Below, piece after piece: positions 1 to 51,937 of a stretch of 64,000 nucleotides of DNA. The stretch is from a virus: IMG/VR virus record IMGVR_UViG_3300002835_000050, positions 50,551 to 114,550 of that record, one strand, 5' to 3'. The first letter of the stretch is position 1, and each line of letters starts with the position of its first letter. A model generated the notes under the pieces. The model was given only the letters and a program-made list of their open reading frames with translations. It was not told the DNA's origin and made no database searches. The position numbers were made by a program, and so were the translations under genes.

Positions 1-2928
1 GGTGCTGAACTTGGTAATGAATCTCTTAATAGATTAAAAGATATTGAAGAAGAGATTATAAAATACAATGCTGAGTTTGATAGAGCTACAGGTTTATCTA
101 AAGATGAAGCTAAAAAATTAAGATATTATGAAGATGAGATAATTGCTTTAGGAAAAGCTTCAGAAATGACTGATGCTCAAAAAGCTGAATATCAATCATT
201 TATAAGTAATAAAACTGCATTTGGTTTATCTGAACAACAAATTGTTTATTTAAGAAGTAGATTTAAAAAATTAGCTGAATTAACATATACAGAACCTACT
301 GATTACTATATTACTACATTTAATGCAATGTTAGGTGACACTGATATAGAACTTATAACTAAAGAAACTGCAGATAGTTGGGTAAATTCAGAAAACCTTA
401 GAGTTGCAAAAGAAGCAAATCCAAAGTTTGCAGAATGGTTTGATAGAAATCATGTTGAGAAAGAAGTATTTAATGAAGGTAAAGCTGTTTATGAAACAGC
501 TAACATTAGAACTAAAGCATGGACAGTATCTAAACCAACTAATCCAAGTCATTATAAAAAAACAACATTAACTGATCCTAGTACAGGTTTAGAAATAGCA
601 GTTGATGGTATTCCTATTGGGAAATATTCATATTCAACAATTAAAAATGAATATAAGACAGGATATGATCCAAAAACTGGTAAAGTTAAATTAGAAGTAG
701 GTAAGCATATTGATAACCGTGGTAACTTTTTACCAAAGGAACAACCATTAGGAGGCCCATTCAGTAAATATATGAATGAGAAGTACTATGAGATGAAGAA
801 AGCTAACTCTGCTGAATTTAAATTATTAGAAGCTATTAAAAAACAAAGATTAATTAACCAAGAAAAGTCTCCATATGCATCAAGATTATATCTTGATTAT
901 GCAAGATTTAGAATTAATACTAACCTTGAATATGGTCAATCTGGTAAATTAGCAAGTGATGCAAAAGATAAAGTTGGTGCAGTAAGTGATGCTTTAAAAG
1001 CTTCTGTTACTAGAGCAGCTGATGATGTTGAAATTGGACAAGCTAATTTTGATCCTAAGTTTTTATATGTACCAACAGATTTACAAGGTAAGGCTTTACC
1101 AAAAGTTCCAGTAGCTGGTTTATATAAAATGAATCTTAATTCTGTTTCTAAAGATGTAATTACTTCAGAGTTAAATTATATGAACTCTTTAGATCTTCAA
1201 AAAGTATTGCTTGATACACAATCAACAGCTAATGCAGTAGTTGATGTATTAGGAGATCCTGATAATGCATTAGATAGATTAGATAGAGTAAGTAGTAAAT
1301 TATCTAGAGCTCAAGACAAAGCTGCAGTATTCTTAAAAAGAGATACTAATAATAAGTTACAATTTGCTAAAGATTTTATTGCCCGTACATGGTATGGTGA
1401 AAATGTTAGTGAGTACCAACAAGAAAACCCTATTATTTCTAAGTTAGTTAGAAAATCTATGGGTGCTGCTAGTTTTGCTTTCTATAATTTAAATCCAACA
1501 TCTACTATTAAGAATAAGGGTGGGATGACCTTTCAAAAATTAATTTTTACTGCTGGAGGCAAACACATTAGTTTTGCGTCAATGGCAAGAGGACAAATTA
1601 AAGCTACTAAAGCTGTATTTGAATATGCTACATCTGGTAATTATACAACAGGTATTAAAAGTTTAGATATGCAGTTAATGGATGCATTTGATATGTCTCC
1701 AGGTAAAACTAAAAAGGATGCTAAAAAATCTCATACTAATACAGCAATTAAACAATTACTTGATGGAGCATGGATGTATTCAGATAGAAAATTAACTGAG
1801 GTACAAGGAGCTCTAGAAATAGGATTCAGTTTAATGGATTGGCAAATGGTAGACCAAGTTCAACCAGACGGTACTGTTAAACAAATAAGATATGTTGATG
1901 CATTTGAAACAGGTGATGATGGTATTGCTAAATTAAAAGATGGTATCAATCCTGAGTGGGGAATGAACTATATTGATCATGTTGTAGAAACTGGTGAGAC
2001 TCTAGAGTCTATTGCTAAAAAATACAATATGACTGTAGAAGAGTTAAAATTAAAAAATAAAATTACTAAAGCAGATACTGTTGAAGAAGGTAAATCTTTA
2101 ATCATTTCTAGAAACACTAAGTTTAATATGATGAAACTTAGAATGGCTAGTGCTAACAAAAAACTTAATGGTAGTATGTCAGCAATAGATTCTCCAACAG
2201 CAGAAAAAAATCTATGGTATGATGTTGTATCATTCTCTAGAAAGTTTGCTACAGGTATGTTCTTATCAAGATTTCAAATGGATACATCTAAAGGAAACTT
2301 TGGAGGTAAAGTATGGGATTGGGATTTAGATGAAGCTACTAGAGGTTCTTATATTACTTTCTTACAAAATGGTTATCAGTTAACAAAAAGTGTTGGTAAG
2401 TATTGGTCAGTAATGACTAAAGATGAAAAAGCTGCTTTTTATAAAATCATGATGGAAGGAATGCTATTGACTTTATCTACTATAGCAATTACAATGTTAT
2501 TTGGTTTTGAAGGAGATGATGAAGACAGGTTTAAAAAGTTAAAAGAAAGAGAAGAGAAATATGGTAATGTAGGTTGGTTAGCTAATCATATGCTTTATCA
2601 AATCATCATGGTACAAAAAGAAAATAGTACAATGATACCTCTTCCTGGATTAGGAGCTGCAGACTGGTTAGATTTTAGTAGTACTAGTAGTATTGTTATG
2701 GGTCCAACATTAGAGTTGTATCAAAAAATATTTATGGATTTAGCTTATATAGTAACAGGTAATGATAAAGCTATTTATAAACAAGAAGTAGGACCTTACT
2801 CATGGCAAGAAGAAGGTAATTACAAATTGTGGAATCATTTAGCAAGTATATTTGGAGTATCTGGTAAAAACTACAGTCCAATATGGGCAATTAAGAAAAA
2901 TGAAGTTTTCACAAATCTTAGAAGTTAA
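1..2928 (+). CDS. Large virion cargo/ejection protein, crAss-like (5' truncated), with an internal LysM domain
   Basis: Frame 1 is open from base 1 to TAA at 2926-2928. LysM-like HVVETGETLESIAKKYNMTVEELKLKN at about 1978-2106; hydrophobic segments near the C-terminus; last large gene before the convergence with the replication block. Confidence 0.7.
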   Translation, partial: GAELGNESLNRLKDIEEEIIKYNAEFDRATGLSKDEAKKLRYYEDEIIALGKASEMTDAQKAEYQSFISNKTAFGLSEQQIVYLRSRFKKLAELTYTEPTDYYITTFNAMLGDTDIELITKETADSWVNSENLRVAKEANPKFAEWFDRNHVEKEVFNEGKAVYETANIRTKAWTVSKPTNPSHYKKTTLTDPSTGLEIAVDGIPIGKYSYSTIKNEYKTGYDPKTGKVKLEVGKHIDNRGNFLPKEQPLGGPFSKYMNEKYYEMKKANSAEFKLLEAIKKQRLINQEKSPYASRLYLDYARFRINTNLEYGQSGKLASDAKDKVGAVSDALKASVTRAADDVEIGQANFDPKFLYVPTDLQGKALPKVPVAGLYKMNLNSVSKDVITSELNYMNSLDLQKVLLDTQSTANAVVDVLGDPDNALDRLDRVSSKLSRAQDKAAVFLKRDTNNKLQFAKDFIARTWYGENVSEYQQENPIISKLVRKSMGAASFAFYNLNPTSTIKNKGGMTFQKLIFTAGGKHISFASMARGQIKATKAVFEYATSGNYTTGIKSLDMQLMDAFDMSPGKTKKDAKKSHTNTAIKQLLDGAWMYSDRKLTEVQGALEIGFSLMDWQMVDQVQPDGTVKQIRYVDAFETGDDGIAKLKDGINPEWGMNYIDHVVETGETLESIAKKYNMTVEELKLKNKITKADTVEEGKSLIISRNTKFNMMKLRMASANKKLNGSMSAIDSPTAEKNLWYDVVSFSRKFATGMFLSRFQMDTSKGNFGGKVWDWDLDEATRGSYITFLQNGYQLTKSVGKYWSVMTKDEKAAFYKIMMEGMLLTLSTIAITMLFGFEGDDEDRFKKLKEREEKYGNVGWLANHMLYQIIMVQKENSTMIPLPGLGAADWLDFSSTSSIVMGPTLELYQKIFMDLAYIVTGNDKAIYKQEVGPYSWQEEGNYKLWNHLASIFGVSGKNYSPIWAIKKNEVFTNLRS

Positions 2929-31133: not shown

Positions 31134-31561
31134 TCTAAACCTTTTTTAATTAATTCTCTAATTGCAGTATGCATATACATATCATTTTTATCAGCATACA
31201 TCTTTACTTGGCCATATAACATTTGATCCAAACTTAACATGACTTTGCTTCTTTGCTTAAGCTTAGATTTTATATTAGGTTCAGGAAAAGTAAATGGAAA
31301 TAACTTTTGTACTTCTGTAGTATTCTTAATGAATGTACCATCTTGCAATAACAACAAGAAATAAGGAATCTTTTTAGATATGTTTATTGTACTTCTATCA
31401 ATTTTAAATATAAAACCTAACTCATCTTCAGTTAAATTAAACTTATAAAACATTAAGGCTAGTAAATAGTTTCTATTATCTAAGTAGTTTCTTTTTCTTG
31501 TTTTCTTGATTATAAACACATTGGTTAAATAATCCCGGACATCTGTTTCTGTATAACTCAT
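31121..31561 (-). CDS. DNA-binding protein (DnaA-C-like HTH plus RHH-like tail)
   Basis: TRKRNYLDNR...ELGFIFKIDRSTI; C-terminal AIRELIKKGL. Confidence 0.5.
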   Translation of the reverse strand: MSYTETDVRDYLTNVFIIKKTRKRNYLDNRNYLLALMFYKFNLTEDELGFIFKIDRSTINISKKIPYFLLLLQDGTFIKNTTEVQKLFPFTFPEPNIKSKLKQRSKVMLSLDQMLYGQVKMYADKNDMYMHTAIRELIKKGLEWEE

Positions 31562-37059: not shown

Positions 37060-37160
37060 AAGTGCAGACAGGATTCGAACCTGTAACCAGTTTTAACAAC
37101 TAGTAAGTTACCTCTGTATTTCTACATTCAACTGCTGTATACCAATTCCGCCACTGCACT
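37060..37160 (-). ncRNA. tRNA-like RNA with expanded anticodon arm (identity unassignable)
   Basis: Acceptor AGTGCAG/CTGCACT, D-loop GGCGGAATTGGTATAC, T-arm ACAGG-TTCGAAT-CCTGT; CAGTT/AACTG encloses 37 nt instead of 7. Confidence 0.7.
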
Positions 37161-38791: not shown

Positions 38792-39050
38792 TTCTTTTGA
38801 TTTAAAATAGATTGCCCATAGACTAATGCCATAAGCAATCCCGTGATTAATAATGTGTCCATTACTTTCTAAATAAAGGATAACGGAGATTTATAACAAA
38901 TATCATAGATGATAGTAGTAAGCCTACTATTGAGAACACATAAGCCTCAAAAGTCTCAGCTACAATAAGTTCAAATGTACATACAGCACACATGATAGTA
39001 ATTAATAGATTAAATACATGATTCATAGTTCATAGTTTTAAGTAGTTTAT

Positions 39051-39305
39051 TTATTTGTACATATATCCCCAATAGTGAGCTTTATTGTAGTTAAATTTAG
39101 GAACATTATAATTTTGCCAAGTTAATTCTTCTTCAACTTCTTCTGTATATAGTAAATCAAATTCTTTTGCAATCCATATTAAATAATGTATGTATTCATG
39201 ACTTCTTTCATTAAGCATTTCTTCAATTGTAATGCCTTTAAATTTACCAAACTTGAATGAGCTTTGCATACCTAGTATTGGTTTCTTTTTTATTTCTTTA
39301 TTCAT
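39051..39305 (-). CDS. FGKxKG-motif protein (DUF3820/ExoX-C-like)
   Basis: FKFGKFKGITIEEM...YLIW. Confidence 0.6.
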   Translation of the reverse strand: MNKEIKKKPILGMQSSFKFGKFKGITIEEMLNERSHEYIHYLIWIAKEFDLLYTEEVEEELTWQNYNVPKFNYNKAHYWGYMYK

Positions 39306-39879
39306 AAGATATAGTTTTAAGAGATTAATAATTTATATTTAGGGCTAATGCCTTATTCCGGAAGATGGCTTTATGTTACTCTTATAGGATATAACACTAA
39401 TGATAAGACTAATAGTAATAGTAATACTAACAGTAGTGTATATAGACATAGTATTAGCTATATACTAATAAGTATATAAGCATATTAACTAAATCTGTTA
39501 CTGAGGCTAATGGCATAGATATGAGGATAGTTTTTCACTCAATCATCCTGTAACCCTTATGTACACTGCATTTCCGTAAACTTCACTACAGTCTTAGCAA
39601 GCATTAAACAGATGTTGTAAGCATCTATTTACATACTATGATTATACTTTAAACATACTCCTTATATACTGTTTATTTGTAAACATTTGCTACATACAAC
39701 AGCAAATGTACCCTAAACACCCATATTTTTAAACTAGCACATTTTGTAACTAACTGATTATCAGAACAAAAGTGCGGTTGCTCCACCGTGTGGAGACAAA
39801 ATATTTGCTATGGACAACAGTATGTGTATTCTTGAGAACAATAATAGTTTAAAGTTGTATGAGGATGCCGCAGGCTATC

Positions 39880-39909
39880 AAAAAAAACAACACACTCCGT
39901 AGAGTGTGT
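39880..39909 (-). terminator. Intrinsic terminator with C(UACG)G tetraloop
   Basis: ACACACTC-TACG-GAGTGTGT then TG and T8. Confidence 0.85.
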
Positions 39910-39916
39910 GTTAATC

Positions 39917-40204
39917 TTAAACAGTAATGTTGCTGAACAAGTGTGCAAAATCTGCTACTGTAGCAATCTTAGCATCTGTACCGTTCAACAATGTGATCCA
40001 AACAGTGTCTCCATCTGCTTGTAACTCAGCTTGGTAAGTAGCACCAACAGTCAAACCGTTCTGTACACTTTTCTCCCAAACTTTAGCAAACCAAACTGTA
40101 CCGTTAATGTCAACAGTGCAAGTACGGAACTTAGTACCGTTAGTGTTTTCCTTTACTGCATTACCTACAGTTTTTAATACGCAAGATGTTTTTTGAGTTT
40201 CCAT
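39917..40204 (-). CDS. Small beta-rich (OB-fold-like) early protein
   Basis: Start METQKTSC; alternating beta-strand pattern with aromatics (FRTCTV, WFAKVW). Confidence 0.6.
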   Translation of the reverse strand: METQKTSCVLKTVGNAVKENTNGTKFRTCTVDINGTVWFAKVWEKSVQNGLTVGATYQAELQADGDTVWITLLNGTDAKIATVADFAHLFSNITV

Positions 40205-40289
40205 AATAATTTGTTTTAATGGATTAATAAATATAAATATCCAAAACAGTATAAAGCTGTATAAGAGAGGCTGCCGAAGGCTACTATGG

Positions 40290-40316
40290 AAAAAAAAGAG
40301 GAACTTAATCCTCTTT
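40290..40316 (-). terminator. Intrinsic terminator overlapping a stop codon
   Basis: AAAGAGGA-TTAAGT-TCCTCTTT followed by a T-run. Confidence 0.75.
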
Positions 40317-40493
40317 GTCTTCATCATACTCAAATGTACCTGTTTCAATGTACTCTAATATCTCTGCTTTAAAAGCAAAGTCTACTACCTTACCATCCTC
40401 AAAGAATAGAGCATAAGTTTGTCTACCTTCTACTTTGTCTTGTGGTACAATAGTTCCTGATACTAAGTACCAAATAAAAATAATTGTTTTCAT
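40305..40493 (-). CDS. Early hypothetical protein
   Basis: ORF between hairpin element and terminator. Confidence 0.65.
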   Translation of the reverse strand: MKTIIFIWYLVSGTIVPQDKVEGRQTYALFFEDGKVVDFAFKAEILEYIETGTFEYDEDKED

Positions 40494-40557
40494 ATTATAT
40501 AGTTTAAAATTTAATAATAGTATAATGCTGTATTTGCCGTAGGCTATAATGGATAAT

Positions 40558-40579
40558 AAAAGAGGATGTTAATCCTCTA
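40558..40579 (-). terminator. Terminator-like hairpin overlapping a stop codon
   Basis: AGAGGAT-TAAC-ATCCTCT-TTT. Confidence 0.6.
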
Positions 40580-40754
40580 ATAGTATCATCTTGTTCTTGT
40601 GCTTAACCTGCCACTCTAGTGCAAGGCTATTGCGGTAATCCTTAATGTCTTTAGGATCTAATTCTTTTAAAGCAACAAGCACCTTATGGTCTACCTTTGT
40701 TTTGAGAAGTATCATAATACCTTCAATTTCTTCAATCATGTTCTGTACAATCAT
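40569..40754 (-). CDS. Early hypothetical protein
   Basis: First ORF left of the strand switch. Confidence 0.65.
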   Translation of the reverse strand: MIVQNMIEEIEGIMILLKTKVDHKVLVALKELDPKDIKDYRNSLALEWQVKHKNKMILLED

Positions 40755-40886
40755 ATCACTATAGTTTAATTAATACTAAGAATAGTATGAAGCTGTAGAG
40801 AATAAGATGCCGTAGGCAAGAATGTTTCTCCTGGTAAATAAAACACCAAACATATTCTGGTATGCAAATCCTCTCTGTAAAACAAT

Positions 40887-41033
40887 GGGGGGTACCCAGT
40901 CCCTGGGTTGGGGGTGGGGTGTGTTCTATAGGGACCCACCTCTAGCCCTCATATACTATAGTTCTATTTACCCTTCACAATCCCTAACATACTATAATCC
41001 CATATCCCGTAATTCCCCATCTAGCCATACCCC
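40887..41033. other. G-tract/C-tract cluster at the transcription divergence point
   Basis: G6, G3, G5, G4 runs at 40887-40919 (+), then multiple C3-C4 runs to 41033. Confidence 0.6.
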
Positions 41034-41071: not shown

Positions 41072-41122
41072 TGTAACAAATTTATGCTATATTTGTCACA
41101 AACTTATACTATATTTGTGACA
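41072..41122 (+). repeat. 22-nt tandem repeat (2.3 copies) containing two TATATTTG promoter elements
   Basis: TGTAACAAATTTATGCTATATT / TGTCACAAACTTATACTATATT / TGTGACA. Confidence 0.7.
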
Positions 41123-41134
41123 TAATTATTTAGT

Positions 41135-41629
41135 ATGATAGTAACACCAGAACTTAATGTTATATCTATAGAAGAAGAGCTAGCCTTGTTAGAGTCTCTG
41201 GCACAAGCTGAAAAAGATAGTAAGTTATCTAATGATAGAACTCTAGTAAGATATGGTAATTCTATTTATAGTAATGAGAAGTTAGATCCTATTCCTGAGT
41301 ATCTACTAGATCTATGTTATAGGTTGATAGATAAAAAAATACTAGATGCTTTACCAGAAGATATAACAGTTAACACTTATTATCCAGGAAACAAGATGGT
41401 TCCGCATATAGATAATGTAGATGCTGGACCTGTAATAACTGTGCTTAGTTTGTTATCAGATGCAAAACTTATTTTGACATATGGAACAAAAAGAGAAGTT
41501 ATAACTTTACCAGCAAGATCTATTATACAGCTTAAAGGTGTATACAGAACACATTGGAAACACAGCATAGAAAAACTAGAACACAAAAGAATATCAATAG
41601 TATTTAGACAATTAGGAAAAAAAATTTAA
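41135..41629 (+). CDS. AlkB-like 2OG-Fe(II) dioxygenase
   Basis: VNTYYPG...PHID...LSL...WKHSI...RISIVFR. Confidence 0.85.
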   Translation: MIVTPELNVISIEEELALLESLAQAEKDSKLSNDRTLVRYGNSIYSNEKLDPIPEYLLDLCYRLIDKKILDALPEDITVNTYYPGNKMVPHIDNVDAGPVITVLSLLSDAKLILTYGTKREVITLPARSIIQLKGVYRTHWKHSIEKLEHKRISIVFRQLGKKI

Positions 41630-41640
41630 AATTATTTAGT

Positions 41641-42273
41641 ATGGCACATATAGAACATAACTTCTTTCCTCTTAAAGTATTTGTAAGAAATGAATACATG
41701 TATCAACATACTAAAGGTCAAGGAGAATTAACACCGGGGGTAATTATATCAGTAAGATGTATGCCGGGGCAAGCAGCATTATTTCAGGTATTGTTAGAAA
41801 ATGGTGTACTTAGAGATAAGTTACCAAGTCATGCGTTACTACATGAAGAACAGATGCCGCAACCAGATCTACCATTTCACTACTTACAGATATGGAATTG
41901 CTTCTCTTATAACTTTACTCTACTACACTTGTCATATTTGTACGACACTAGGGTAGAAGTCTACATGAAAGATCACAAGTTCTACCCGGGTAGTTATTAT
42001 GCTACTATCAATTGGGGGTCTAATGATCACAACACAGATCTATCTTTAGCAGAAGATCCATTAGAACATAAGAGTCATCACATCATTTTACTTGACAATG
42101 GTCAAATAGCATTACAACCTAACAACAGAATTAAGTGGTCTGAACCTAGCTTTGTAACTAAACCATTTCCTGAAAAACCAGATTACTTAGTTAACAAAGA
42201 CTACTATAATTGTGAAGGATTTGAAAAATGGAGTACAGAAGATTCAGAAAGAATGTTCTATGACAATGAATAA
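41641..42273 (+). CDS. Conserved phage hypothetical protein
   Basis: LQIWNCFSY...EHKSHH...NGQIALQPNNRI.W. Confidence 0.75.
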   Translation: MAHIEHNFFPLKVFVRNEYMYQHTKGQGELTPGVIISVRCMPGQAALFQVLLENGVLRDKLPSHALLHEEQMPQPDLPFHYLQIWNCFSYNFTLLHLSYLYDTRVEVYMKDHKFYPGSYYATINWGSNDHNTDLSLAEDPLEHKSHHIILLDNGQIALQPNNRIKWSEPSFVTKPFPEKPDYLVNKDYYNCEGFEKWSTEDSERMFYDNE

Positions 42274-50218: not shown

Positions 50219-51937
50219 ATGAGTACATTTATACAAATAGCTGGGTCTAGTGCACCTAATAATTCTTGTATTACGGATACATCATTAATTGGTGCAGCAG
50301 GATTACAAACAAATGAGATTCAAAATGGTGACTATCTTTTATTTTGTGGATCAGGAAAATTTGGATGGACTAATGGAGGATGGGATGCTGTAGTAAATAC
50401 AGCTTTACCTGGTTTTGTTACTAATGTAAGAAATAGAAATTTAAATTCAGGAATTACTTTATCTGCAGATTTATTTCCTGGAGACATTATTAAATTTTCT
50501 GGTACAAGTTATATTAGTTATAGCGACCAACCTGTTGTTTTAACAAAGTTATCGGTTGGTTTAGTATTTGCAACTTGTGATAATATTAGAAATAATGATA
50601 GAGATATCCCATTATCTACTATTATTACTACACAAAACTTTGACTATACATATCCTACTAATAATCAAACTGGGTATTTATGTTTTTTAATAGAACATAC
50701 TGTAACTCAAACTTTTTTAGCAGGGGAAACAGTTTTTTATGCTGTGTTTGGTTGTGATAATAAATCTGAAACTTTAGTGACACCAAGTGTTAGTTTTTCA
50801 TTAGGTACTGTAAGAAATTGCGGTGAAGTAGATTTAACTCCAAATATGGAATTACAATTATGTTGTGATCCATCAATTGTTGATATTGTATATGATACAA
50901 CATTAACAGTAGGAGATTTTTTTGTAGATAATGAAGGAAACTGTTGGGAAGCTCAAGCTAAAACAGGAGCACAAGTAACTAGTGTAAGAACAGTAACTAC
51001 AAAGTATACCTCTTGTGAAGAATGTATTAGCTTTAATGAATGCCCTGATAATATAATAGTTGAATCATGTTGTTTTATGGGAGCTGAAACATTTACAGCT
51101 TCTTTACCTGGTGTTTCAGTAGGAGATGTTTTTGTTGATACATATGGTTTCTGTTGGGCAGCTATTGATGAAACTTCTGGTCCTATTACAGGTATGGTTA
51201 TGATTGATACAAATTATGGTCCGGAAGCATGTGAAGATTGTTTAAATATAAATGCATGTCCTGAAATTATTAAATTAATACCATGTTGTGAATATATAGG
51301 AGGAACAGAAATATTAACTACGGCTGCATTATTTGGTTATACACCAGTAGAGGGAGAACTTGTTTCAGATACATTTGGTAATTGTTATACAGTACGGTTA
51401 GGTTATACTGGTAGTATTTCAGCACCGTTCATTGAATTTGGAACTAGTTATGGAGAACCCGATGAACCATGTATACCTTGTATAGAGGTTAATGCTTGCG
51501 GTCAACCATTATATTATAATGTTATTAATTGTTGTACAGGTGATACAGAAGTTATAGTAATTGATACTTTAATAGCACCAGAAACTGTAATAATAATAAC
51601 TACTACTACTTCTCCACTTTTTCCACAATGTTGGAAAGTTGTAAGTTTTAGTAATACAGGAACAGCAACAATAATATTAGATACATTTATCAAAGATGCA
51701 AAGGACTGTAATGATTGTGTTAAGGAACATGGTTGCATTACTTATTATGAAGTAGCAGACTGTTGTGATATTGTTCCAAATGGAGTAATGTTATTACCTG
51801 ATAATCTTGATTTAACACTTGTATACCGTGATGATACTGGAACATGTTGGTCAATTGTAGGACCTACAGTAGGACCCGCTACAGTTGTATGGAATGGTAA
51901 TAATAGAGAATCATGTAGTGAGTGTGGTTGTGGTTAA
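50219..51937 (+). CDS. Cys-rich repeat protein (five about 70-aa CC...C[WY]...CxxC...C units)
   Basis: Repeats visible from about 50846 to the C-terminus. Confidence 0.75.
   Translation: MSTFIQIAGSSAPNNSCITDTSLIGAAGLQTNEIQNGDYLLFCGSGKFGWTNGGWDAVVNTALPGFVTNVRNRNLNSGITLSADLFPGDIIKFSGTSYISYSDQPVVLTKLSVGLVFATCDNIRNNDRDIPLSTIITTQNFDYTYPTNNQTGYLCFLIEHTVTQTFLAGETVFYAVFGCDNKSETLVTPSVSFSLGTVRNCGEVDLTPNMELQLCCDPSIVDIVYDTTLTVGDFFVDNEGNCWEAQAKTGAQVTSVRTVTTKYTSCEECISFNECPDNIIVESCCFMGAETFTASLPGVSVGDVFVDTYGFCWAAIDETSGPITGMVMIDTNYGPEACEDCLNINACPEIIKLIPCCEYIGGTEILTTAALFGYTPVEGELVSDTFGNCYTVRLGYTGSISAPFIEFGTSYGEPDEPCIPCIEVNACGQPLYYNVINCCTGDTEVIVIDTLIAPETVIIITTTTSPLFPQCWKVVSFSNTGTATIILDTFIKDAKDCNDCVKEHGCITYYEVADCCDIVPNGVMLLPDNLDLTLVYRDDTGTCWSIVGPTVGPATVVWNGNNRESCSECGCG

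Follow-up and report, generated by a model that had tools for sequence, protein, structure and literature searches.

INTRODUCTION

What directs transcription of the first genes of a crAss-like phage is the question raised by a 1-kb locus in a 64,000-nucleotide (nt) stretch of viral DNA (the window; positions 50,551–114,550 of the 114,550-base-pair (bp) IMG/VR record IMGVR_UViG_3300002835_000050, with coordinates given in window numbering unless stated). The locus forms the extreme start of the leftward gene block, adjoining the strand switch, and carries four modules, each pairing a putative DNA mini-hairpin with a 17-nt box; a first-pass annotation of the window had taken the hairpins to be the promoter code of an injected RNA polymerase. 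Work in 2020–21 showed that crAss-like phages transcribe early genes with the RNA polymerase they inject; its promoter could not be defined. In phage phi14:2, early genes are transcribed by the crAss-type enzyme gp66, which has a preference for single-stranded templates, and that phage yielded no early motif (10.1101/2020.03.07.982082); in the literature, we found no later paper defining a promoter for a crAss-like virion RNA polymerase. Here, we describe a clade of related viruses that supplies a conserved candidate. To judge from sequence comparison, the modules very probably represent a phage-specific class of promoters.

RESULTS

Four hairpin-box modules open the leftward gene block

The mini-hairpin sequence GCCGNAGGC has four exact copies, all on the + strand: 39867–39875 (loop GCA), 40273–40281 (GAA), 40536–40544 (GTA), and 40809–40817 (GTA). 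The chance expectation is 0.03 copies, none of 100 shuffles gives four, and no fifth copy occurs on either strand of the complete 114,550-bp record. The 17-nt box AAYAGTWTRADGYTGTA is present exactly at 39843, 40245, 40516, and 40781, 2–10 nt to the left of each hairpin, with spacings of 6, 10, 2, and 10 nt, respectively, between the box and the TGCC of the hairpin; other matches to the box require two mismatches, are scattered within genes, and have no hairpin. All four hairpins and all four boxes lie on one strand within 1 kb of the 114.5-kb genome. Read on the coding (minus) strand, a module comprises an intrinsic terminator (in three of the four units), 4–13 nt, the hairpin sequence (T/A)-GCC-TNC-GGC-A, 3–11 nt, the sense box TACARCWTYAWACTRTT, 22–40 nt, and an ATG.

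The copies, positions, and spacings reported in the first-pass annotation matched exactly, and its placement of three copies directly after an intrinsic terminator is borne out by the minus-strand terminators at 40578–40561, 40316–40295, and 39909–39890, just upstream of the hairpins of units B, C, and D. Its description of the units as single-gene cassettes holds for units A–C, with genes of 61, 62, and 95 amino acids (aa), but not for unit D, in which the box is followed by ~530 nt without an open reading frame (ORF), by genes of 84 and 54 aa, and by a terminator at 38841–38809.

Relatives were collected in three scans: an exact scan of IMG/VR for hairpin plus box (13 contigs), a box-only scan (two further clades), and a metagenome scan anchored on the 95-aa unit C protein (51 further loci, 43–100% identity). 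The resulting ~65 related contigs contain 200 non-redundant units. Among GenBank phages, megablast and blastn searches with the region found no relative, only short terminator matches to Staphylococcus phages: the 29-nt terminator after the unit B gene (40290–40318) is 100% identical to the terminator region of many Staphylococcus myophages (Romulus, Remus, and others), most likely through chance convergence of a simple hairpin and T-run.

The features of the locus, from right to left, are as follows.

40871–40935, minus strand: G/C-rich block, sense ...GGGTCC..CCCC..GGGTACCCCCCAT, with a decayed additional box ('unit 0'), TACAGAGAGG, that is intact in relatives
40809–40817, + strand: unit A mini-hairpin, template strand GCC-GTA-GGC; the flanking T/A makes a fourth pair
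40775–40797, minus strand: unit A core box, sense TACAGCTTCATACTATT plus 6 downstream nt of the 23-nt conserved core
40569–40754, minus strand: unit A gene, 61 aa (MIVQNMIEEIEG...), kept in relatives, with no family match
40561–40578, minus strand: unit A intrinsic terminator
40536–40544, + strand: unit B mini-hairpin, GCC-GTA-GGC
40510–40532, minus strand: unit B core box, TACAGCATTATACTATT plus downstream nt
40305–40493, minus strand: unit B gene, 62 aa, conserved in both clades
40295–40316, minus strand: unit B intrinsic terminator
40273–40281, + strand: unit C mini-hairpin, GCC-GAA-GGC
40239–40261, minus strand: unit C core box, TACAGCTTTATACTGTT plus TTGGAT, exactly the family consensus
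39917–40204, minus strand: unit C gene, 95 aa, predicted OB-fold; best Foldseek matches, weak, to single-stranded-DNA-binding proteins
39890–39909, minus strand: unit C intrinsic terminator
39867–39875, + strand: unit D mini-hairpin, GCC-GCA-GGC
39837–39859, minus strand: unit D core box, TACAACTTTAAACTATT plus downstream nt
39306–39842, minus strand: unit D conserved non-coding stretch, with invariant islands TATATAGCTAA, AACAGATT, and TTCCGGAA in 8 relatives
38809–39305, minus strand: remainder of unit D, comprising the 84-aa gene (39051–39305), the 54-aa gene (38862–39026), and the terminator (38841–38809)

The box is conserved, oriented, and confined to one region

In four related virus records, the box occurs on one strand and in one 1–5.5-kb stretch, with 2, 10, 4, and 4 copies, as compared to 0–1 for a reversed-pattern control; the expectation that the motif would be confined to one short region rather than scattered held in every genome examined. 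Across the 51 metagenome loci, matches to the relaxed box TACA[AG]C-N5-ACT-N3 on the gene strand outnumber those on the other strand 212:1. In relatives, the box ends 14–42 nt before the ATG of many unrelated small ORFs. The promoter-like behavior anticipated by the first-pass annotation is thereby seen across the clade: the box is strictly oriented, intergenic, close to start codons, and conserved.

Conservation does not stop at the end of the 17-mer. In 198 non-redundant units, T17 is present in 181, A18 in 146, A22 in 159, and T23 in 144, with G or T at position 20 and G or A at position 21. Because conservation continues to position 23, we define the core as ~23 nt, with the coding-strand consensus TACARCTTnnnACTnnT-A-n-G/T-G/A-A-T.

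Other readings of the box were considered and rejected. A hairpin formed by the box itself in RNA or DNA (ACAG...CTGT) is contradicted by changes at positions 5 and 15 that break pairs without compensation; sigma-54-like and sigma-70-like readings of the units are contradicted by variable spacing; and a 9/12 sigma-70-like match in unit C is a chance match.

A further box lies to the right of unit A in relatives. Many carry an intact 'unit 0' box 10–13 nt downstream of the G/C-rich block, where it opens a short non-coding stretch; in the window, this box has decayed. The block itself (40871–40935) stands out in a genome of 31% GC and is kept across relatives. It reads, in the sense direction, ...GGGTCC..C-tracts..GGTACCCCCCAT, with G-tracts on the template strand and a GGGTACCC palindrome.

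A mini-hairpin with a template-strand G-N-A loop accompanies most boxes

A GCCTNCGGCA-like element is present 3–13 nt upstream of the box in 143 of the 200 non-redundant units (72%), with a main mode of spacing at 8–12 nt and a minor mode at 3–4 nt. In relatives, the loop reads T-N-C on the sense strand in 127 cases and G-N-A in none; therefore, the template strand always carries the G-N-A loop. The center of the loop is free to vary (sense TTC 54, TGC 47, TAC 19, and TCC 7), and variants of the loop include A-N-A (6 units) and a G-TT-A tetraloop.

The hairpin alignment comprises 140 elements in 76 distinct rows. The two outer pairs are invariant; at the loop-closing position, 71 rows have C:G, 4 have T:A, and 1 has no pair. 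Overall, 99.6% of hairpin cells are paired, and the covariation score was reached by none of 500 shuffles. An unpaired form, GCC-TGC-AGC, and a restored form, GCT-TGC-AGC, are found in apparently orthologous units, and alternative stems occur in the same place: GTGC-TTC-GCAC, GC-TTC-GC, and the tetraloop form GCC-TAAC-GGC. We regard this covariation, which the first-pass annotation had predicted and which takes the form of C:G to T:A changes in the loop-closing pair, as modest but real evidence that stem pairing is important; the hairpin is under selection both for pairing and for a G-N-A loop on the template strand.

On the template strand, the element has the sequence features of the exceptionally stable GCGNAGC class of DNA mini-hairpins (two or more G-C pairs, closure by C:G, and a G-N-A loop whose N is free). 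Hairpins of the GCGNAGC type melt at ~76°C and are present in the early promoters of phage N4 (PMC13037366; for the N4 core, also PMC4496689). The corresponding RNA, with a triloop on 3 bp, would be weak. An RNA UNCG-tetraloop reading of GCCUNCGGC was rejected: its register leaves a C-C mismatch, and the covariation of C3:G7 to U3:A7 fits a triloop.

Mini-hairpins of this kind also have a role in replication, and the elements might be single-strand initiation (priming) signals, or another replication structure, with only a secondary association with the box. Mini-hairpins of the forms CC-GAA-GG and GC-GNA-GC are found at ssiA priming sites and at the origin of phage G4 (PMC13037366), and the elements here head the replication-gene block, next to the conserved G/C-rich block and a conserved non-coding region. 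However, coupling to the box is tight: GCC-NNN-GGC sequences upstream of boxes have the same polarity in 133 of 133 cases, and nearly every hairpin in relatives is followed by a box. In addition, the count per genome equals the number of cassettes, and the hairpin lies directly before gene starts. We consider a priming role very improbable.

Hairpin and box are separable modules

Several observations weigh against the hairpin as an essential, folded part of the site. Only one of the three stem pairs varies, and its changes may trace to 2–3 events. No hairpin accompanies 57 of the 200 boxes (28%), including nearly all units of a sister clade (L022, L035); hairpin-less boxes also include several units directly after a terminator and 'unit 0' next to the G/C-rich block. 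Conversely, in one relative (G001), two hairpins stand without a canonical box. A stem of 3 bp is short for a hairpin that would have to extrude from duplex DNA, and nearest-neighbor folding gives −1.5 to −2.8 kcal/mol with the two strands alike, in a model that has no term for the GNA loop. Finally, the distance from the T-run of the preceding terminator to the hairpin (median 6 nt, standard deviation 3.2) is about as constrained as that from hairpin to box (median 9 nt, standard deviation 2.6).

Because boxes occur without hairpins and, in G001, hairpins without a canonical box, we treat the two as separable modules; because 28% of boxes, among them nearly all of a sister clade, have no hairpin, we take the box to be the core, to which the hairpin is an accessory. 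The claim that the hairpin is the promoter code itself does not survive this comparison.

The T-run spacing raises the question of whether the box alone is the promoter and the hairpin serves the unit upstream, at its end, as an additional termination element, a block to read-through, or a protector of the 3′ end. The tight spacing applies to 99 of the 143 hairpins. In the sister clade, T-rich runs (GTCTTTTTTA) come after the small hairpins that precede boxes, which could make these hairpins weak terminators, and mini-hairpins are known as polymerase pause sites (PMC13037366). Against this, a 3-bp triloop hairpin in RNA would be unstable, and the spacer after the hairpin is not a T-run in the window. 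Moreover, unit A and the first units of several relatives have a hairpin with no upstream terminator or gene, and in this genome the hairpin is found only at the four boxes and at no other minus-strand terminator. Since unit A has no terminator upstream and the other minus-strand terminators of the window have no hairpin, we conclude that the hairpin goes with the box and not with termination, and we consider a function at the 3′ end decidedly unlikely. That the hairpin acts as a folded element of the template strand is possible on the sequence pattern, though we consider it somewhat less probable than not.

A crAss-type virion polymerase is a candidate reader of the sites

Three adjacent giant ORFs encode 1859, 3603, and 1936 aa and span record positions 31236–53478, the end of which corresponds to window positions 1–2928. 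PHROGs and PDB sequence searches with the 3603-aa product returned nothing, and its identity comes instead from tblastn: residues 1800–3000, which span a DFDVD motif at residue 2322, match 122 Crassvirales records, including the crAss001 'putative RNA polymerase'. The genome thus carries a crAss-type RNA polymerase, as the reading of the hairpins as virion-polymerase sites presupposed. The corresponding polymerase segments of two longer relatives that keep the box are 65% and 61% identical to that of this genome, and the polymerase of the sister clade that mostly lacks the hairpin is 61% identical. The products of the three giant ORFs hold just 1, 2, and 1 cysteines.

The crAss two-barrel type is the only polymerase of RNA type that we found. 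Six-frame searches of the genome for sigma-70 region 2 and region 4_2 domains gave no match, with positive controls detected. The T7-like polymerase family PF00940 also gave no match, but its control was silent too, which counts against assigning the sites to the crAss-type enzyme.

Host-type promoter elements are present elsewhere in the genome. The rightward operon opens with two TATATTTG host-type −7 elements (41088–41095 and 41110–41117), and a tRNA located further to the right has, upstream of it, the Bacteroidota promoter form TTTG-N19-TATATTTG. As stated in the first-pass annotation, the host motif TAnnTTTG is absent from the upstream regions of all four units. In the minus-strand gaps of at least 60 nt within the leftward replication block (5120–38800, ~35 kb), we found neither TAnnTTTG nor the box, and no shared motif by eye.

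Five points lead us to favor the virion enzyme: the motif is unlike the host promoters that this genome contains elsewhere; searches detected no phage sigma factor; the motif heads tiny, individually terminated ORFan genes, the typical place of first-expressed genes; it is conserved in phages from many samples; and the phi14:2 virion enzyme transcribes early genes and uses single-stranded templates. On this pattern of sequence and precedent, we put the chance that the virion polymerase reads the sites at about even.

The main competitor is host RNA polymerase, directed to the box by an alternative host sigma factor or by an unrecognized factor that is phage-encoded or virion-delivered, with the hairpin sequence serving as a duplex operator or activator site. 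The first genes of many phages use host polymerase, the cassettes close with ordinary intrinsic terminators, box and hairpin are separable, and most of the small early proteins, having no assignable function, could include such a factor. A factor encoded by these same genes could not start them, however, and no sigma-70 domains were detected in the phage. The units are also unlike the Bacteroidota −33/−7 elements found elsewhere in the genome; the asymmetric loop (T-N-C, 127:0) and the stem covariation fit a folded strand better than a palindromic duplex site; and in the studied crAss-like phage it is the virion enzyme that transcribes early genes. We consider reading by host polymerase unlikely and retain the virion polymerase as the favored candidate.

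Unit products, the non-coding stretch of unit D, and genome layout

The 95-aa unit C protein is the most widely conserved cassette product. It is predicted to adopt a strand-strand-strand-helix-strand-strand OB-fold topology (pLDDT 86.5). Its best Foldseek matches are to bacterial and mitochondrial single-stranded-DNA-binding proteins, PriB, and RPA domains, all weak (E-values of 1e-3 to 1e-2), and its best VIA Z-score of 7.7 is within the generic OB-fold range. It has no Pfam family and only a sub-threshold PHROG match (phrog_17459, unknown function, E-value 0.0013). In the context of template melting, single-stranded-DNA-binding protein (SSB) serves the N4 polymerase and RPA serves QDE-1. 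If a polymerase needs its template melted, a single-strand-binding protein made early would suit it, but the predicted fold provides only a lead.

The non-coding stretch of unit D (39306–39842, minus strand, ~530 nt) is conserved in 8 relatives from both clades, with the invariant islands TATATAGCTAA (8/8), AACAGATT, TTCCGGAA, and AAACTATC. It has no Rfam match and no consensus RNA structure, with a z-score of −2.06 for RNA folding. An early non-coding RNA is one possibility; another is an element that works as DNA, such as an origin. In phi14:2, the early region contains small genes and long non-coding stretches that are highly transcribed (10.1101/2020.03.07.982082).

The genome layout is crAss-like, with a leftward block that contains DNA polymerase, primase, and helicase genes and a rightward block that contains the terminase gene and then, past the contig junction, structural genes. 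The terminase matches Crassvirales with ~25% identity. A tRNA match lies in the leftward block (37060–37160, minus strand; Rfam RF00005, 37 bits, E-value 2.8e-05). The rightward operon contains a 2OG-Fe(II) oxygenase gene (41135–41629; Pfam E-value 1.5e-11) followed by a 210-aa gene (41641–42273) that is ~40% identical to a cyanophage/pelagiphage auxiliary gene annotated as 'ferredoxin' or PurM. The resemblance to the cyanophage/pelagiphage gene points to an aquatic habitat, and the contigs come from freshwater/marine samples.

DISCUSSION

A proposed bipartite promoter for the first leftward units

We propose that bipartite promoters start the first four leftward, presumably early, units beside the strand switch. 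The ~23-nt core box would probably set the start site within or just after its own 3′ end, giving 5′ leaders of ~15–40 nt. The 3-bp GC mini-hairpin 3–13 nt upstream, with its G-N-A loop on the template strand, would be an accessory module that probably aids polymerase recruitment or DNA opening, for example as a nucleus around which the template becomes locally single-stranded. As reader, we consider the injected crAss-type two-barrel virion RNA polymerase most likely, and the output would be three one-gene promoter-gene-terminator cassettes and a longer fourth unit that opens with a non-coding stretch.

What the sequences show directly is the motif with its orientation, confinement, and conservation, the covariation of paired bases, and the polymerase gene; we infer promoter activity, start-site position, the reading polymerase, and hairpin formation in vivo from them. 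The proposal as a whole, a 23-nt core with an accessory hairpin and a crAss-type virion polymerase as the most likely reader, seems to us evenly balanced between right and wrong. A more specific version, in which the box fixes the start for a two-barrel virion polymerase and an independently evolved, N4-like hairpin helps the enzyme load where the template is locally single-stranded, maybe together with the OB-fold protein, is speculative, and we advance it tentatively, as less probable than not.

If this version is correct, the clade would give the first defined promoter for a polymerase family common to crAss-like phages and eukaryotic QDE-1-type enzymes. The candidate is sharply delimited and strongly conserved, and its box, hairpin stem, loop G and A, and spacing can each be put to the test. 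If the hairpin part is correct, it would represent convergence with coliphage N4 via an unrelated enzyme. If only the box part is correct, the box would still provide a portable, host-independent promoter for work with Bacteroidota phages.

Comparison with known promoters and mini-hairpins

The phi14:2 enzyme, a giant virion protein with DFDxD, belongs to the polymerase family of the candidate reader. The early transcripts of phi14:2 showed no common upstream motif, whereas a strong shared motif is present here, recognized from sequence alone. In Thermus phage P23-45, promoter motifs have been defined for two-barrel polymerases of both virion (gp96) and non-virion (gp64) type (10.1101/2022.12.01.518664). 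That system resembles ours in having a virion-delivered two-barrel polymerase, a short motif just upstream of pre-early genes, and restriction of the motif to relatives that encode the enzyme. It differs in phage lineage, in having an AT-rich motif with no hairpin described, and in its basis, start-site mapping and chromatin immunoprecipitation sequencing (ChIP-seq) there as compared to sequence here.

The mini-hairpins of G4 and ssiA (GCGNAGC / CCGAAGG) share with those described here the G-C pairs and a G-N-A loop with a sheared G:A and N free (PMC13037366). Theirs serve primases at replication origins, whereas those described here go together with a promoter-like box ahead of genes.

N4-type promoter hairpins form by supercoil-driven extrusion and are stabilized by SSB. 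The early promoters P1–P3 of phage N4 are read by the injected virion RNA polymerase gp50 (PMC4496689, PMC13492108). The likeness is threefold. First, the copies are few, lie on one strand, and cluster where the early region starts, in phages that both carry a giant virion polymerase gene (~3500 aa). Second, the template strand has a hairpin whose 3-nt G-N-A loop is closed by C:G (GAAGC-GGA-GCTTC in N4; GCC-GNA-GGC in 4 of 4 copies here, by sequence alone). Third, the enzyme prefers single-stranded templates.

The differences are as follows. N4 has a T7-like enzyme with no relation to the crAss two-barrel enzyme. The stem in N4 measures 5–7 bp, as compared to 3 bp here (4 in unit A). In N4, the loop center is fixed at −11 and the region from −17 to +1 is one block, whereas here the spacing is 3–13 nt, the 23-nt box is separate, and the hairpin lies at roughly −27 to −35 from the likely start. 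The central G of the N4 loop (−11G) is read specifically, whereas here the central base is A, T, G, or C, and the hairpin is dispensable in 28% of units. With stem length, register, central base, and enzyme family all different, the elements are outside the N4 promoter family.

Promoters of T7-group single-subunit phage RNA polymerases are ~23 bp, extend from −17 to +6, and are read as duplex, with no upstream hairpin. They resemble the box described here in forming a compact, contiguous block of ~23 nt before short leaders, repeated per gene, specific to the phage, and unlike host elements; they differ in sequence, which is unrelated, and in the upstream hairpin, and PF00940 has no match in this genome (with a silent control). 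From their sequence, the elements most resemble a combination of two known kinds, a core box of T7 size and an N4-like mini-hairpin on the template strand, and are best filed as a kind of phage-polymerase-specific promoter.

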